Shown: one piece after another, positions 56,182 to 64,000 of the stretch
Numbering within the stretch: the first letter of the stretch is position 1
Layout: each line of letters begins with the position of its first letter
Assembly (NCBI GenBank): GCA_965228855.1
Contig: CBDDIJ010000005.1
Coordinates: 1,184,001-1,248,000, forward strand
Direction: 5' to 3'
Source: Candidatus Obscuribacterales bacterium
GTDB lineage: Bacteria > Cyanobacteriota > Vampirovibrionia > Obscuribacterales > Obscuribacteraceae
DNA length: 64,000 nucleotides
Notes under the pieces: model-generated
Seen by the model: the letters and a program-made list of their open reading frames with translations, nothing else
The model's database searches: none
What the model was told of the DNA's origin: nothing
Position numbers and translations under genes: made by a program

Positions 56182-59100
56182 GTGTCGTCATCTATCTTTC
56201 GAAGATTTTCGAGTAGCGCCAGGCTTGGTGACCTTTTGGTGCAGGCAGGCATTCTGACGCCTGCGCAGTTGCAGGAGGCGATGCGTTCATCGCGTTCGAA
56301 GAAGCTGCAAATCGGTCAAGTACTGGTAATGTCGGGCTATATGACCGCCCGCGACCTGCAGATTGTGCTTGAAGCGCAATCCATGTTGCGAGACCGTACT
56401 ATCGACCTCAACCTCGCTATTCAATGTATAAAAGTCGCCCGCAAAATCGGCGGTAATTTCTCGGATGTACTCGAGGATTACGACCAGAACGCCGCTCAGC
56501 GAGCGCGAACCGGCAAGCTCGGAGAGCTGCTGTTCGAAGCTGGTCTGGTAAGCGAAGAAGATTTATCAGAAGCGATGGAACGCAGTGTCAACACGGGCAT
56601 GCCCCTGGGGAGGATGCTTGTTTTAAACCGCATATTGCCCAGCGAAGTTCTTCAAAAAGCGCTTGAAGTACAAGTTCGTCTGCGCGATGAAGTTGTTTCA
56701 CGAGAAGAAGCAATACTGGAGTTACGTCAGGCAGCCGGTCTCGAAGGTGCACCTGCCGAACAACCCAAAGCCGAAGAGAAGAAAAAACCGCTTGTGCGGC
56801 TCGGCGAACTTCTGGTTATGGCAGGCATTCTGACTGAAACCGACGTCATGGATGCGCTTGAATGGGGGCTTGCCAATCAACAGCCGATTGGAGTCGTCCT
56901 GGTTTCGCAGGAGCTTATTTCGAAGGAACTTCTGGACGCAGCGTTGTTTTTCCAGGAAGCTGTTCGCGACGGAAAAATCGACGCTATGAAAGCGTGCGAA
57001 CTGTTGTCGGAAGTTTTCTCTACCGGTGTCAGCCCTGAAGAAGCTCTAGCCGAGGCGGCTCCCAGCAACAAACGCGAAGAACCGGAAGTTCCGCCTATTA
57101 CATATCAGCAATTGCTCACACTCTCGCGTGTTTGCACTGATGAAGATATTGAAAGCGCTTTTGAGTTGAAACGACACGGCGCCGCCCTGATTGGAAAAGT
57201 GCTGGTACTGACGGGCTTAATGGATGTGCCAACACTTCAAGCTACGCTGCGATGCTATCAAATGGTCGCGAAAGGTTGGCTCAATCCTGACGATGCAATT
57301 GCAACGCTCGATTACTGCCTTCACAAGGGTGACCAGATCATTTCATTCGAGCAAGGCTTGCGCGATCTGAAGTGGACGCCGGAAAGCGGGCTCAAGATGC
57401 GTGGCGAAGCCGGCACCGAAAGTAGTACCACTACGCCGAAAGTCTCCGAATCGAAAGCTCAAACCCCTGAAGAAAAGGAAGCCGCTCGCAAGGCGCTCAA
57501 AGAGTCGATTCGCAAAGTCACTGCTGAGGCACTGGGAGAGAGCGCATTGAGTCCAGCATCACCGGCGGAAGCGACAGTAGAAGAGCCGGCTCTCGCAGAT
57601 TCAGATGAAGACGATGATGATGACGAAGAATTCGTTCTGACAAATGTTTTGGAAAGAACGCTCGCCGAATCCGAGGCCGCCTCAAACGATCAGGTAGAAC
57701 AGGCAGAGTCAAAAGCCGCTGGTAAAGCGGCGGCAGAAAAAGCGGCAGCAAGCCTCTCGGAAAAGATTGCGGCGGAACGAGAACGCTCAGAAGCAGCTCA
57801 AGAGTCGGTAGCCGCGAAGAAGTCCGTCGAACCCTCCGCGGCTAAGTCAAAAAGAGGTAAGGACGCGGAGCATGCAGAAGCCGATGCAGAGCCGAAGTCT
57901 GATTTAGGCGCTCCAGCCGAAAGTAAAGCTGAAGCAGAATCGCAGCCGGCGGACGAAGACGACGCAAACGCTAAACCGACTCAAGAAGATAACGCAGACG
58001 AAGACGACGCTAAAGCTGCTGACGATGCTAAAGCCGCAGAAGAAGCCAAAGCTGCGGAAGAATCAAAATTGGCCGAAGAAGCCAGAGCTAAAGAAGAGGC
58101 CAAAGCTGCCGAAGAGGCCAGAGCTGCTGAAGAAGCCAGAGCTGCTGAAGAAGCCAGAGCTGCTGAAGAAGCCAGAGCCGCTGAAGAAGCCAGAGCCGCT
58201 GAAGAAGCCAGAGCCGCTGAAGAAGCCAAAGCTGCTGAAGAAGCTAAAGCAGCTGAAGAAGCTAAAGCAGCTGAAGAAGCTAAAGCTGCAACCGCTGCTA
58301 GCGAGGCCAAGGCAGCAGAGGAGGCTAAAGCGGCAGCCGAGCAAGCGGCTGCTGAGAAAGCAGCCGCCGAGAAAGCACCCTCAGAAGCTTCCTCTTCGCC
58401 AGAACCGGCTTCGGAGCTCGCTCCTGCAGCTAAATCAAGTCGCAAGAAGATGCCGGTTGACATGGATGAAGATGACGATAACGACACCAGAGTCGTCGCT
58501 TCCAGCGAACCATCATTGGCACGAGCATTAAACTCGTTATTTGACAACGGCTTCGACGATGATGAACCACCACTCTCATCGAACAACGACAAACTCACCG
58601 AGCCGCAAGAACGTGAAGCGGCCGAGCCTGCAGAAGAAAACTCTGCTGGTGGCCTCAAAAATCTCCTCCGAGGATTGATCGGTGACGAAGAAGACGACGA
58701 AGAACCCGCTGAGAAGCCGGCGGAAACCGCCAAAGCAGAAGTTTTTGCCGGCAGTACTGCCGCTAAAAAGGCAGCGAACGCAGCATCAAGTGGTAGCGCC
58801 GGTGGTTCTTCCGGCAAAGAAGTAATCGCAAAATCAGACGATGCCGAACCAACATCGACTAACGGCGAGTCCAAGCCGGATTCAGAGCTCAGTGAGATCG
58901 AGCGCGCAGAAGTGAAACTGGAAGAGACTGAGGCGAAAAATGACGCGATAAAAGATGAGGCGGACTCGGCAGAACCTGTAACCGAGCCGACCCCGGACGA
59001 AGTTGCAATTGAAGATATTGCAAAACTGTCCGCAGAACAGCTCCTCGTCGAAATCATGAAAACGGCCCAAAATCCGGAAATCAAAGTCACGTCCAAACGC

Positions 59101-59733
59101 GGCGGCAGATTCTCAGAAACAATCCTGCCCGAAGACGCCAAGGCAAGACAGCTGGCTAAGCTCGTCGGTAAGGAAGCCTCAAAAGATCTTGCTGAAAAAC
59201 TATCATTCGACCAGGCAGGTGAAAAGAGTGAAGAACCAGTAGACACCGCATTCGGACGCCTGGCTGAGACTTACTTTGAACAGGGCAACTACAAGGAAGC
59301 TCAAGTCATTTACGAACGTATGCTCGTCAACCGGCTCAACGAGCTGGGTCCAGACAACCCGGCCCTCGTCGAAGACTACAATAACCTGGCGATGACGCTT
59401 TGTGTTCAGGGTCGCTTTGATAAAGCGGAGCCGTTCATGAAACGAGCTGTCCACCTGTACGAAAGCGCCCCAACCCAAGATCAGATAGAGTTTGCAGACT
59501 ACCTGCACTCACTCGGCACCATCGAATATAAGCTTGAAAAACACAAAGATGCCGAAGAAATAATGCTACGCGTTGTGAGTATCCGACGAGAATCTCTGGA
59601 AGAGGATCACGAGGACATCGGCCGCGCACTGGCAGATTACGCCAAAGTTTTGAAAAAGCTCGGCAAAGACGAATCGGCTGAGTCCATATACAAAAAGGCT
59701 CGCGAAATTTTAAAGAAGCACCGCGATAAGTGA
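56182..59733 (+). CDS. Multi-MshEN-like (RLGxxL..G) repeat protein with charged helical linker and C-terminal TPRs
   Basis: RLGDLLVQAGIL, KLGELLFEAGLV and RLGELLVMAGIL modules; EEA(R/K)AA repeats; kinesin-light-chain-type TPRs (LAETYFEQGNY, NNLA..QGRFDKAE). Confidence 0.82.
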   Translation: MSSSIFRRFSSSARLGDLLVQAGILTPAQLQEAMRSSRSKKLQIGQVLVMSGYMTARDLQIVLEAQSMLRDRTIDLNLAIQCIKVARKIGGNFSDVLEDYDQNAAQRARTGKLGELLFEAGLVSEEDLSEAMERSVNTGMPLGRMLVLNRILPSEVLQKALEVQVRLRDEVVSREEAILELRQAAGLEGAPAEQPKAEEKKKPLVRLGELLVMAGILTETDVMDALEWGLANQQPIGVVLVSQELISKELLDAALFFQEAVRDGKIDAMKACELLSEVFSTGVSPEEALAEAAPSNKREEPEVPPITYQQLLTLSRVCTDEDIESAFELKRHGAALIGKVLVLTGLMDVPTLQATLRCYQMVAKGWLNPDDAIATLDYCLHKGDQIISFEQGLRDLKWTPESGLKMRGEAGTESSTTTPKVSESKAQTPEEKEAARKALKESIRKVTAEALGESALSPASPAEATVEEPALADSDEDDDDDEEFVLTNVLERTLAESEAASNDQVEQAESKAAGKAAAEKAAASLSEKIAAERERSEAAQESVAAKKSVEPSAAKSKRGKDAEHAEADAEPKSDLGAPAESKAEAESQPADEDDANAKPTQEDNADEDDAKAADDAKAAEEAKAAEESKLAEEARAKEEAKAAEEARAAEEARAAEEARAAEEARAAEEARAAEEARAAEEAKAAEEAKAAEEAKAAEEAKAATAASEAKAAEEAKAAAEQAAAEKAAAEKAPSEASSSPEPASELAPAAKSSRKKMPVDMDEDDDNDTRVVASSEPSLARALNSLFDNGFDDDEPPLSSNNDKLTEPQEREAAEPAEENSAGGLKNLLRGLIGDEEDDEEPAEKPAETAKAEVFAGSTAAKKAANAASSGSAGGSSGKEVIAKSDDAEPTSTNGESKPDSELSEIERAEVKLEETEAKNDAIKDEADSAEPVTEPTPDEVAIEDIAKLSAEQLLVEIMKTAQNPEIKVTSKRGGRFSETILPEDAKARQLAKLVGKEASKDLAEKLSFDQAGEKSEEPVDTAFGRLAETYFEQGNYKEAQVIYERMLVNRLNELGPDNPALVEDYNNLAMTLCVQGRFDKAEPFMKRAVHLYESAPTQDQIEFADYLHSLGTIEYKLEKHKDAEEIMLRVVSIRRESLEEDHEDIGRALADYAKVLKKLGKDESAESIYKKAREILKKHRDK
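58003..58290 (+). repeat. 16 x 18-nt tandem repeat encoding EEA(R/K)AA
   Basis: Units such as GAAGAAGCCAGAGCTGCT and GAAGAAGCCAGAGCCGCT counted contiguously from 58003 to 58290. Confidence 0.92.
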
Positions 59734-60626: not shown

Positions 60627-60809
60627 CAGAACGGCTTCGAATAGCAGAAAGCAGCTTGGATATGCTCGAGGATTTGCATCGATCTCGCCGTGATTCGTAA
60701 TGAATCTGCTCGCTTTCTCAATTGCCGTGAATTGAATTATCTTGTCAACGCGCTAATGGCGCGGCTTTGCGCATCGTCTGAATGGGTATCACCATAATGG
60801 GGGAGGATG

Positions 60810-60827
60810 ATCACCCTCTAGGGTGAT
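60810..60827. promoter_or_regulatory. Operator-like palindrome
   Basis: ATCACCCT-CT-AGGGTGAT is a perfect 8-bp inverted repeat in a long intergenic region. Confidence 0.4.
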
Positions 60828-61295
60828 AGTGCTTAATTGCGCTAACTGAAGTTTGAAAAAAATGAGCATTCATGCGTTATTTCACAGATCGAATCATTTC
60901 CGGCTGAAATGAGACTCACGGAAAGGGACGGCAAAAGCCGCTTTCGCAAGCCGCACATCGCAAGACGGCTACGCTGTGCGCTAATCCTTAGATAGAGCGA
61001 AAAAAATTTCTCAATCGGCGGCAAAAAGTCAGGACGAGCTCAGGGTTCCGTCAACGAAACGACGCGGACAGTTTCACCGTGCAAACATGGGCGTTTCGCG
61101 CGTCTTCCAGAATTAGAATCGCGAATCCCAGCCGGTAGCACGGGGTTTAGTAATCTTTCGTTACCTGAATAGCATCCGAGGGCGCCAATTCGTAAAGGTC
61201 AAGTTGCTCAATTCCCGACCGCTATACAGGAGCCAGCGCACCTCAGATACAAGTTTCCTGCCCACTTTCTCAACCGGAATAAACCAGTTATAAGA

Positions 61296-61480
61296 CATCG
61301 AGAACGCAATACAATTCTCGATGATACTACTACTGGTATCACACCGCGCAGATGTGACGGTGGAGACCTGGAACTATCTGATCAGTTACATCGCTGGATC
61401 GCTGCCTGTGTGCGATTCGAGAGTGAGCCCATACTGCGGCTCGCGCTAGGCAAAACACCTTTGCAAGCGCAGCTGCGCAA
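61296..61480 (+). promoter_or_regulatory. Multi-hairpin leader upstream of YD micro-gene
   Basis: Stems CATCGAGAA/TTCTCGATG, TGATAC/GTATCA, GATGTGAC/GTTACATC, ATCGC/GCGAT, GTGAGCC/GGCTCGC and GCAAA/TTTGC. Confidence 0.4.
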
Positions 61481-61513
61481 CCCGATGCACCAAGCCAAAC
61501 AAGGAACGAAAAA

Positions 61514-61660
61514 ATGAGCGACTCCGCAACCTACGAGTACGACACAAGAGGTCGTCTCAAGAAGATCACCTACCTCAACGGTACGACCATCCAGTACAAC
61601 TATGACAACGCGGGCAACCGCACGTCCGTGGTGACGACCTGCAGCGGCAGCGGATGCTGA
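61514..61660 (+). CDS. 48-aa stand-alone YD/RHS-repeat micro-protein (below the ORF track cutoff)
   Basis: AAGGA RBS; MSDSATYEYDTRGRLKKITYLNGTTIQYNYDNAGNRTSVVTTCSGSGC contains two canonical YD repeats. Confidence 0.85.
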   Translation: MSDSATYEYDTRGRLKKITYLNGTTIQYNYDNAGNRTSVVTTCSGSGC

Positions 61661-61676
61661 GCTTGCTGGTACACCT

Positions 61677-61970
61677 GATGTTTGTTTAGTGACGTAATCG
61701 CCTCAGCGGTTTCGTCACACCATAGTAGTTGCTGCGATTTCAATACAGCTGTTTGGTCAGAACTTCAGTAATCGCTGAGGTCCTCCGCAGCTGTTGACGT
61801 TCGCGCTTAGCGGCGCGCAAATCAAAACATCCTCAACCGGCCGCTCGAAAAGTTCTCGAAGAAAATTCCTTATAGCGATTCGCGCCGAGCCGCATCCATT
61901 GAATTGGATGCGGCGTCTTCGTGCGCCCGCATGAGGAGCGAGATTGGAGCGGCCATCAACCGAAAGATGG
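61677..61970 (+). ncRNA. Putative structured cis-regulatory RNA / ncRNA of unknown class
   Basis: Nested stems with loop-loop complementarity (61701-61711 with 61770-61780), then a 116-nt rod hairpin (61839-61954). G-U pairs favour the + strand. Confidence 0.5.
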
Positions 61971-61980
61971 AATCACCAAT

Positions 61981-64000
61981 ATGCCGACAAAAGACAAGCC
62001 GAAGCGTTCCGAAGTCCAGACTCCCGGACTTTACGCCACCCCCAAGCAGCGCTCAGTGAGCCCGAGCGCGGCTCGTCCGATGATCGAAGGACGAACAATG
62101 CCAGGCAACATTTATGTTCCAGGCAAAACCCCCTCTCCCAGAGCAGCGATTTCGGGAGTCTCGGACACGGCGATCGTTTTGAATACGACCGCAAATGCCC
62201 TGGATATTCCCGGCGGACAGGTCGACTTGCTCAACGGACAAGACAATTTGCTCGACGGGCAGGTCGACTTGCTCGAAGGCAAGCAGAACAAACCCGAGAT
62301 TCTGGCGGCGACTTCGCCGGGTTTTGCGAGCAACCGTTCCAGCGGTCCGGAGAGCATCACCGAAATGGCCCGTGCTCTCAAAAACGACGTTGATCTGATC
62401 TTCAACTTCGTCCACGACAACATCGAATTCATCCCGACTTTCGGCAGCCAGAAGGGCGCGCTGGGCACGCTCATCGACGGCTTCGGCAACGCCTTCGATC
62501 AGTCCGAATTGATGATCGCGCTCCTGCGCGAAAGTGGTGCCTATACGTGCAGCTTCCAGTTCGGCGAACTCCAGCTTACCGCAGCACAGGCCGCCGCATG
62601 GCTCGGTAACGACCCGGGCAGCATCTGGGCGGCATCGAACCTGCTGGGTAACCTCGGCGTCCCCAACGAGACGAGCTGGACCGGCACCGAATGGGTTCTG
62701 CGCCTCAGCCACTGCTGGGTGAAGGTTCTCATCGCCGGCACTTACTACCACTTCGACCCGGCGATGAAGGCCTACACGAAGATTGACGGCATCGACCTCG
62801 CCACGGCGATCGGTTACAACGCCACGACCTTCATGTCGAGTGCCACCAGCGGCGCCACCATCACCTCCAACTACGCCCAGAACCTGAATCGCACGAATGT
62901 GCGAAACAACCTGGCGACGATGGCGAACACGCTGGTCACCTACATCAATACGAACGCACCGACCGCGACGACCGACGATATCCTCGGCGGTCGCACCATC
63001 GACAAGCAGACCACCCAGCTGCGCCAGACCGCCCTGCCGTATCTGCGCCCAAGCACGACGCCGACCACCTGGACGGACATCCCGAACAGCTACAAGGCAA
63101 CACTCGGGGTGCTCTATGACACCATCAACGTGAGTTTCTACTCAAAGGACATCCACGGCAAGCGACTCACGCTGTTCTTCAACGCCTCGCATCAGGCTGA
63201 GCTGCGTCTCGATGGCACGCTGATCGCAACCAGCAGCGCTCAGACGCCGGGCAGCTGGAACTCAGTCCTGCTCTCGATAACGCATCCCTATCCCTACACG
63301 TGGTGGGACCAGAGCTTCTGGCAAACGGTTTGGGAAGGCAAGCCCTACCTGATCGCGCAAGCCTGGGGTAATGCCGGTCGCAACATGACCGAGATTCACC
63401 GCGAGAGACTCAACCAGGCGATCTACAACGGCTCGGCGTCCGACTCTGAAGTGGTGCTCGGCGAAGCTCTCTCCGTGCGCTGGCACACCTGGAACTCACA
63501 GAAGAGCTGGACGTGCGACGTCTTCAATCGCATGACCCAGTGCACGACGGTACTCCAGCACCAGGTCGGTATGGTCGGCTGGTACGACACTCCGATTATG
63601 GACCTCGGCGGCATCGAATGGTCGAGCGGCGCCCTCGATAACAACTACGATAACGTCAATACCAACGACACCGCGCTCGCCATGCACGGCATCGCCTTCG
63701 AAGCCGGCACCATCGAGCAGATCTGCGGCATCGGCGGCATCAGCTCAACGACGATCCTCGACAAGGCCGTCCAGGACGGCAAGAAGATCTACCACGGACG
63801 CAGCGACAACTGGTCCGCAAGCGTTCGACCGAACCTGACCAACTACGATAGCCAGACTCTCGATGACATCGAAAACTGGTACCTCAACTATGGTTGGAAG
63901 GTTGCGATTCCTGAGGACGGAAATGTCGCCGTTCAGGACTTCCGAGGTTTCGGCTACTACGCAATCAGTCCCTGGCAGGGCGCAATCGGCATCTTCAGCG
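61981..64000 (+). CDS. Large protein (3'-partial) with N-terminal transglutaminase-like domain; probable RHS/YD-repeat giant protein
   Basis: Open for 673 codons to the window end; absent from the track because it has no stop. Contains ARALKND...FNFVHDNI...GSQKGA.GTL..GNAFDQ..L.IALLRESG...HCWV...FDP, then FE...IEQ....SSTT.LD.A...G..IY. Confidence 0.85.
   Translation, partial: MPTKDKPKRSEVQTPGLYATPKQRSVSPSAARPMIEGRTMPGNIYVPGKTPSPRAAISGVSDTAIVLNTTANALDIPGGQVDLLNGQDNLLDGQVDLLEGKQNKPEILAATSPGFASNRSSGPESITEMARALKNDVDLIFNFVHDNIEFIPTFGSQKGALGTLIDGFGNAFDQSELMIALLRESGAYTCSFQFGELQLTAAQAAAWLGNDPGSIWAASNLLGNLGVPNETSWTGTEWVLRLSHCWVKVLIAGTYYHFDPAMKAYTKIDGIDLATAIGYNATTFMSSATSGATITSNYAQNLNRTNVRNNLATMANTLVTYINTNAPTATTDDILGGRTIDKQTTQLRQTALPYLRPSTTPTTWTDIPNSYKATLGVLYDTINVSFYSKDIHGKRLTLFFNASHQAELRLDGTLIATSSAQTPGSWNSVLLSITHPYPYTWWDQSFWQTVWEGKPYLIAQAWGNAGRNMTEIHRERLNQAIYNGSASDSEVVLGEALSVRWHTWNSQKSWTCDVFNRMTQCTTVLQHQVGMVGWYDTPIMDLGGIEWSSGALDNNYDNVNTNDTALAMHGIAFEAGTIEQICGIGGISSTTILDKAVQDGKKIYHGRSDNWSASVRPNLTNYDSQTLDDIENWYLNYGWKVAIPEDGNVAVQDFRGFGYYAISPWQGAIGIFS
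62215..62277 (+). repeat. 3 x 21-nt imperfect tandem repeat (GQVDLLN/GQDNLLD/GQVDLLE)
   Basis: GGACAGGTCGACTTGCTCAAC / GGACAAGACAATTTGCTCGAC / GGGCAGGTCGACTTGCTCGAA. Confidence 0.8.

Follow-up and report, generated by a model that had tools for sequence, protein, structure and literature searches.

Some toxin shells built of YD repeats are made from more than one chain: in Tc/ABC toxins, the BC shell is completed by two polypeptides, B and C, which join end to end. Here we describe a locus (L001) of Candidatus Obscuribacterales bacterium in which a YD-repeat gene of only 48 amino acids (aa) accompanies a large Rhs gene. It lies at the end of, and extends beyond, a stretch of 64,000 nucleotides (nt), hereafter the window (G000:C5:1184001-1248000, where G000 is the host genome, assembly GCA_965228855.1, 95.3% complete, and C5 is its contig CBDDIJ010000005.1). 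We call the product of the small gene the panel, and the RHS-repeat part of the Rhs protein the shell. Unlike the joined B and C polypeptides, the panel is a four-strand piece predicted to lie inside the sheet of one chain, and the locus shows neither the A subunit nor the beta-propeller gate of Tc/ABC toxins.

The large gene belongs to a known polymorphic-toxin class. In Zhang et al. 2012 (PMC3482391), an inactive transglutaminase is reported ahead of RHS repeats, where it "always" directly follows a signal peptide or transmembrane helix, and the protein studied here shares with that class an N-terminal transglutaminase fold without a triad residue, an RHS array, a variable tip, and immunity-like genes downstream. 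The original prediction for this DNA, made from its letters alone, had proposed a candidate new toxin, a claim that is not supported, given the earlier description of this class. In contrast to the published proteins, the present one has neither a signal peptide nor a transmembrane helix by a hydropathy rule. The accessible sections of that paper mention no separate YD partner, and they mention Ig-type domains only as neighboring domains; among our relatives, Ig-type domains also occur in fusions to the YD module.

Type VI secretion system (T6SS) Rhs effectors, such as RhsA (PMC8765631), Tse15 (PMC11461821), and an S. bongori Rhs (bioRxiv 10.1101/2024.02.26.582050), share the plug fold, the YD shell, and the core self-cleavage motif. 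As described in the available parts of these reports, they are single-chain shells with PAAR, VgrG, or clade domains, unlike this locus, and their openings are N-terminal or lateral, with no separate YD protein filling them. For Tse15, a lateral cleft has been described close to the N-terminal domain (PMC11461821), and RhsP reportedly lets its toxin out by way of a side opening (Tang 2022, as the Kielkopf preprint cites it). Bacterial teneurin-like proteins (PMC13018210) are likewise YD-shell toxins outside the T6SS that carry adhesion-type domains, come with immunity genes, and are delivered by an unclear route, and some of them also lack signal peptides. Their accessory domains, by contrast, are covalent and N-terminal; that text does not mention a transglutaminase, and the portions available do not mention a separate YD module. 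Our literature searches, in which subscription journals were thinly covered, returned no publication on a separate YD partner of Rhs, and a two-part shell of this kind is apparently undescribed so far.

The YD panel gene and its predicted place in the shell

The main features are as follows (positions above 64000 are window-relative coordinates on G000:C5).

61514 to 61660, + strand: YD panel gene, 48 aa, with an AAGGAA ribosome-binding site, one four-strand YD module, a C-terminal CxxxxC, and no signal peptide
61981 to 64000, + strand: 5′ third of the Rhs gene, 673 aa to the end of the window
66640 to 66708, + strand: predicted panel site in the RHS shell (residues 1554 to 1576), from co-folding

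Two YD repeats and a ribosome-binding site of its own had been predicted for the small gene, and both were borne out: behind the AAGGAA motif, the protein contains two RHS_repeat stretches (PF05593, E 1.6e-10) and scores above the TIGR01643 cut-off. Relative to nine homologues, 229 substitutions fall at codon position 3, compared with 107 and 90 at positions 1 and 2. The same genome carries a paralogous pair on contig C2, whose 48-aa gene is 73% identical.

We surveyed a pool of relatives, five plasmid loci, and 77 genome loci (n = 110 after de-duplication), of which 87 extend at least 2.5 kb upstream. A one-module YD gene is present in 81/87 scorable loci across several phyla, and in 63 it lies upstream and co-oriented. 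Among the remaining 24, the partner is divergent in 11 and downstream in 7 (one of them 4.7 kb away); one locus comes second in a tandem of two genes, and 5, some with short flanks, have no partner. The YD gene is also annotated upstream of Rhs in records of two Methylomonas plasmids and of a Burkholderia plasmid. The synteny of micro-gene and large gene that was originally put forward for checking held. A script that mis-parsed a few proteins classed the YD module of 79 upstream partners as standing alone (42), as an N-terminal tag (29), or as a C-terminal tag (8). In a scan of 38 proteins, the module was seen fused to domains of types such as Big_9/cadherin, PKD, fn3, Calx-beta, MBG, He_PIG, galactose-binding, Gp38, RCC1, and collagen, together with several that match no family, and these adhesin-type fusions differ freely among kin. 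The module also adjoins signal-bearing Rhs proteins without a transglutaminase match in seven loci (L183, L185, L187, L193-L195, and L199) from Caulobacter, Methylocaldum, and Sphingomonadaceae genomes, and because it accompanies Rhs proteins that lack this domain, the shell is its likely partner. Eight other sphingomonad matches to the module have no Rhs within 1.5 kb. Judged by sequence and distribution, Rhs has in the 48-aa YD gene a partner that is conserved, separately encoded, and near-obligate, in line with the original proposal of a separate YD strand pair.

Partners also tend to agree in their signals. Among 69 scorable loci, a signal-like stretch is found in both partners in 39 and in neither in 22; the 8 discordant loci reflect, by eye, borderline scores or wrongly chosen starts. 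All 22 loci with no signal belong to Obscuribacterales/Melainabacteria. Both partners lack signals here and in most Obscuribacterales, and both carry them in other phyla. On a quick tree of 65 N-domains, the signal-less rows fall in one Obscuribacterales branch, with three changes and a single origin possible.

Some observations concern individual groups of panels. The CxxxxC motif (61640-61657) is retained in Obscuribacterales panels with or without a signal peptide and in L041, and is missing from proteobacterial panels. In L129, two tandem genes for YD-tagged, collagen-containing fibers stand ahead of one Rhs gene, which suggests alternative panels serving one shell. We also considered a built-in panel for loci without an upstream partner, since 8/19 such full-length shells carry a 42-60-aa insertion at residues 860-900. 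This insertion is mostly a Cys-containing loop of one subclade and occurs in two partner-bearing loci as well, and most of the seemingly partner-less loci have a YD gene elsewhere; the idea was rejected.

When residues 705-1640 of the shell and the 48-mer were co-folded, both with alignments of their own, the small protein was placed on the shell with a score of 0.74, against 0.00 for the best of three controls. The mark applied is reached by 116/157 solved pairs and 2/215 mismatched pairs, rates that are only approximate with the alignments used here. At least 97% of contacts agree between runs, the predicted local distance difference test (pLDDT) of the partner is at least 87, and about 99 contacts are confident. 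In the model, panel residues 3-7 run antiparallel to Rhs residues 1554-1559 and panel residues 36-41 antiparallel to 1572-1576, and the four panel strands occupy a gap in the shell that is spanned by a 12-residue linker (1560-1571). Further modeled contacts lie near residue 1299 and at 1316-1320 and 1338-1340, with none at the artificial cut at 1640. The segment 1544-1590 measures 45-53 aa in 61/62 aligned shells and 46-47 aa in 47/62, and the large fusions borne by both panel termini fit a surface position. Inter-chain mutual information across 57 pairs gave no signal (top z 6.9, shuffled maxima 6.9-7.8). On this evidence, we think it probable that the locus encodes a two-gene container in which the four strands of the 48-aa protein fill a gap in the shell wall at 1554-1559/1572-1576.

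Several points weigh against this interpretation. Because the panel is similar to the repeats of the shell itself, the co-folding result may reflect likeness to solved, continuous Rhs sheets, and the controls included no other YD fragment. Over its C-terminal third, the shell is colinear with RhsP and shows no gap in the alignment; the gap therefore does not show up as a deletion in the sequence and may be common to Rhs proteins at large, with no partner required. The pooled loci are kin and not independent draws, and in 5/87 the partner is not in view. Signals were scored by the hydropathy rule and not by SignalP, and the concordance between partners reflects few events, since loss maps to only three changes and possibly one. 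Finally, toxicity of this tip and immunity through the downstream array are predictions.

Alternative roles for the small gene and its spacer

The following features lie around the small gene.

61661 to 61980, + strand: spacer of 320 nt with several hairpins
60627 to 61513, + strand: non-coding region of 887 nt with no open reading frame (ORF) above 48 aa, likely promoter/5′ leader
61174 to 61249, + strand: stem-loop-like element of about 80 nt

The original prediction combined the micro-gene with an RNA-controlled leader, and the small gene could accordingly be a leader peptide that, together with the spacer, exerts cis-acting RNA control over the Rhs gene as an attenuator or riboswitch. The spacer does appear structured, as had been supposed, with a folding z of −4.8 relative to dinucleotide shuffles, a value reached by only 2/45 intergenic regions of similar size on C5. 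Moreover, many of 18 homologous spacers have, as judged by eye, a GC hairpin ahead of the Rhs ribosome-binding site, often with a U-run, and the 80-nt leader hairpin is also found in G002. The spacer is nonetheless not a conserved RNA, because the 18 spacers vary from 54 to 363 nt and share no alignable sequence beyond two near-identical pairs. An Rfam search of the spacer gave a best E of 0.53, far below the gathering score. In a related contig, positions 61661-61890 are swapped wholesale while the gene and the last 90 nt are retained, and only the 3′ part of the spacer (hairpin 61889-61914 and the ribosome-binding region) is kept. Spacers also lengthen by local duplication (L005, L008). In 18 loci, moreover, the partner gene is found divergent or downstream, and elsewhere it bears a signal peptide or large fusions. 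Control by a leader RNA is accordingly very improbable, and neither the originally predicted RNA-controlled leader nor a conserved structured RNA is supported. We read the GC hairpin and U-run as an ordinary means of making more of the first gene's product, and the spacer at 61661-61980 likely tunes the ratio of panel to Rhs expression.

There is even less reason to regard the small gene as a duplicate that arose from shell repeats, whether selfish or degenerate, that is, a recombination remnant with no role at the protein level. Its resemblance to those repeats and the decayed copies of the micro-gene 3′ end in the L008 spacer would fit such an origin, yet the third-position excess of substitutions, the restriction to exactly one module, the possession of a ribosome-binding site or signal peptide, and retention across phyla in three gene positions largely refute it. 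A transient chaperone is a more serious contender, though still an unlikely one: the YD protein would template the last turn of the shell during folding or assembly and then be released, with its fusions anchoring the complex to the producer cell and not to a target. Such a role draws on the same genomic evidence as the two-part container, the terminator-like hairpins would yield an excess of the small protein, and surface anchoring was itself proposed for this toxin class in the part of Zhang et al. 2012 (PMC3482391) concerned. Against the chaperone, about 99 confident contacts and backbone pairing on both edges of the model look like a stable subunit, and adhesin-type fusions vary freely among kin. 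We therefore retain the two-part container as the preferred reading.

Farther upstream, the predicted non-coding stretch of about 890 nt was found at 887 nt. As a whole, it shows no conservation, its folding z is −2.1, a scan of 60627-61513 for sigma-70 and terminator consensus sequences found no match, and a search of G000 revealed no second copy. The 80-nt element within it is common only to G007, G002, and the host genome (3/61 genomes); compensatory changes affect 2/22 pairs, with two independent sequences too few to judge.

The large protein, its tip, and linked genes

Beyond its start, the Rhs gene and its downstream neighbors comprise the following.

62356 to 62760 (residues 126 to 260), + strand: transglutaminase-fold domain, supported by a fold match and by Transglut_core at E 2.8e-4, just under the Pfam cut-off
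63076 to 64000 (residues 366 to 690, ending just beyond the window), + strand: alpha/beta domain of about 325 aa in the predicted model
From 64126, + strand: DUF6531 plug by profile match (DUF6531 at residues 716 to 779)
67345 to 67764, + strand: Gly/Cys tip of 139 aa, Gly-rich and ending CxxxC...CxxxC
67963 to 73979, + strand: seven tandem, co-oriented LolA-like paralogues of about 240 aa each, GC 0.458 versus 0.597

The Rhs gene most likely starts at ATG 61981 (an in-frame GTG lies at 61921) and ends at 67764, giving 1,927 aa. The co-oriented ORF of at least 673 aa with a Cys-less transglutaminase-like N-domain was correctly foreseen. In a model of residues 120-930 (pLDDT 91.6), this domain matches TglA (Z 11.3, root-mean-square deviation (rmsd) 3.3, 131 residues aligned) and LapG (Z 10.3). 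Ala171 (62491-62493) occupies the position of the catalytic Cys, and His244 and Asp259 are retained. None of 110 aligned rows has Cys at that site (Ser in 53, Ala in 41), while His is kept in 102/110 and Asp in 110/110, and the domain likely has no catalytic role and serves in binding or as a scaffold. The following alpha/beta domain (pLDDT 94.9) has a long beta-hairpin between helices of 27-30 residues. A structural search with it reached a best Z of 4.3, with no viral match at E ≤ 0.001, which does not establish a new fold; nothing supports a pore-forming role, which we also considered.

Extension beyond the window upheld the prediction of an RHS polymorphic-toxin locus whose 5′ end lies here. 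The N-terminal plug fold matches Rhs plugs (Z 11.9-13.9, rmsd 2.2-2.6, with Tse15 at Z 13.9), and it is followed by 13 stretches of RHS repeats (PF05593), an RHS core (TIGR03696, residues 1717-1789), a DPYG cleavage motif (1785-1788, DPYG\|L), the tip, and likely immunity genes. A conserved hydrophobic helical hairpin after DUF6531 (L001:6303-6470; residues 775-830) is the most hydrophobic segment of the family and is missing from the transglutaminase-less Rhs of L185.

The 139-aa tip, which matched nothing in Pfam and NCBIfam scans, is a putative toxin tip. Comparisons of the large protein cover the best 120 of 276 homologues; those close homologues that are named carry the source labels Obscuribacterales or Melainabacteria. 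Among the matches listed, the tips are largely unrelated to one another, and toxin-type Pfam matches on some of them comprise PF15607, PF14220, PF01541, and PF14040, which we take to be Ntox44, DUF4329, GIY-YIG, and NucA/NucB. For the seven downstream genes, the nearest family-assigned Atlas clusters are of DUF2092/RseB/LolA types, a lead that comes without an E-value. Members of the LolA-like family (E ≤ 1e-12) are present in 5/104 family genomes, and in all five they follow a Cys-hairpin tip. G007 has an N-domain 99% identical to that of G000, a tip that differs most sharply in its last ~25 residues, and no counterpart of the first LolA-like gene, as expected for exchange of tip and immunity gene. 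The array likely consists of immunity genes.

Other family members are linked to lanthipeptide genes. The C2 paralogue (L003, G000:C2:580648-590776, − strand) is followed by LanC (PF05147) and LanB (PF04738/PF14028) genes. Across the 104 family genomes there are 13 LanB genes, of which four lie directly behind a complete panel-transglutaminase-Rhs set (G000, G028, G075, G109; all but G028 with LanC), two lie behind RHS-core fragments, and seven have no Rhs nearby, several of these on short contigs. Members of the four LanB-linked loci (L003, L126, L158, L159) are signal-less. Their tips measure 75-110 aa and contain between 3 and 12 Cys and between 12 and 24 Ser+Thr; at least three Cys occur in 13/65 other parsed tips. 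FDLD or YDID is present in 2/4, with one FDLD directly after the cleavage motif. Class I lanthipeptide precursors typically combine an FxLD-type leader, a core with Ser/Thr and Cys, and neighboring LanB and LanC genes. LanB works in the cytoplasm, which fits assembly of a signal-less Rhs. These tips are possible Rhs-borne lanthipeptide precursors, and the same literature searches returned no publication on an Rhs-LanB linkage. A lipoprotein-like gene of ~190-210 aa with no Pfam match occurs in four Rhs loci (L003:13408-13965, − strand; L120; L126; L159), three of them LanB-linked, and lies upstream of the panel gene where checked.

Further Rhs genes and neighbors show other arrangements. G000:C5:236082-245891 encodes a 2,265-aa Rhs with a different N-terminus behind a 996-aa gene without a YD panel match, and C5:1616939-1619089 is an orphan Rhs C-terminal fragment. 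The Rhs gene of L121 is interrupted by an ORF whose start looks, we presume, like a group II intron reverse transcriptase. Within the window, 56182-59733 encodes a protein of 1,183 aa with repeats at the N-terminus, an extended (A/E/K)-rich tandem repeat, and a TPR-like region at the C-terminus.

Export and the proposed particle

No signal peptide, PAAR, or VgrG cue had been seen at the N-terminus of the large protein, and hydropathy and profile scans agree: there is no hydrophobic signal region (best 11-residue hydropathy 1.53, at position 76 of the leader; 2/120 close homologues reach 1.9), and PAAR and VgrG profiles do not match there. The route likewise stays unexplained, as first noted, since searches of G000 for VipB, VgrG, Phage_GPD, VirB4-type, and phage sheath genes found none. 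The genome does encode three secretins and a GspE/PilB-like ATPase. Among the 22 signal-less loci, no transporter family, as judged by eye, recurs. One proteobacterial locus adjoins a type II secretion system cluster, which fits Sec/type II export in that organism. For G000 we tentatively favor assembly in the cytoplasm and release by lysis or vesicles; alternatively, the leader, which is basic and rich in Pro (median charge +4.5 across 120 homologues), could be an unrecognized export signal.

A plausible course of events would begin with Rhs and panel folding together in one compartment, here the cytoplasm, with the spacer hairpin likely serving only to set panel above Rhs. The core would cleave itself at DPYG\|L and keep the Cys-hairpin tip inside, LolA-like proteins would neutralize that tip, and the panel would close the side opening. 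In relatives whose panel bears Ig, cadherin, PKD, RCC1, or collagen-type domains, it would also display an adhesin on the shell. The particle might then leave by lysis or vesicles, or failing that by an unrecognized non-Sec route. More broadly, it is possible, if on balance doubtful, that many Rhs proteins outside the T6SS are two-part containers whose separately encoded YD panel is a removable side hatch and a socket for interchangeable adhesins, the loss of which frees the toxin, and that Obscuribacterales moved both parts to the cytoplasm, with some shells carrying LanB/LanC-modified tips.

How Rhs shells let go of cargo, and how Rhs proteins lacking a T6SS find targets, are open questions stated in the available texts of Kielkopf 2024 and PMC13018210. 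A small, routinely annotated, and apparently unstudied gene offers a concrete answer, namely a wall panel at a side opening that would be able to carry adhesins, and predicts that structural and functional work on Sec-type Rhs proteins needs the partner gene. The signal-less branch of Obscuribacterales, a lineage that has been little studied, raises the puzzle of how these proteins are exported. It also points to a possible connection of Rhs toxins with the chemistry of lanthipeptides, in which Rhs proteins, if the proposal is true, would be carrier-precursors for ribosomally synthesized and post-translationally modified peptides that are released without a known secretion signal.

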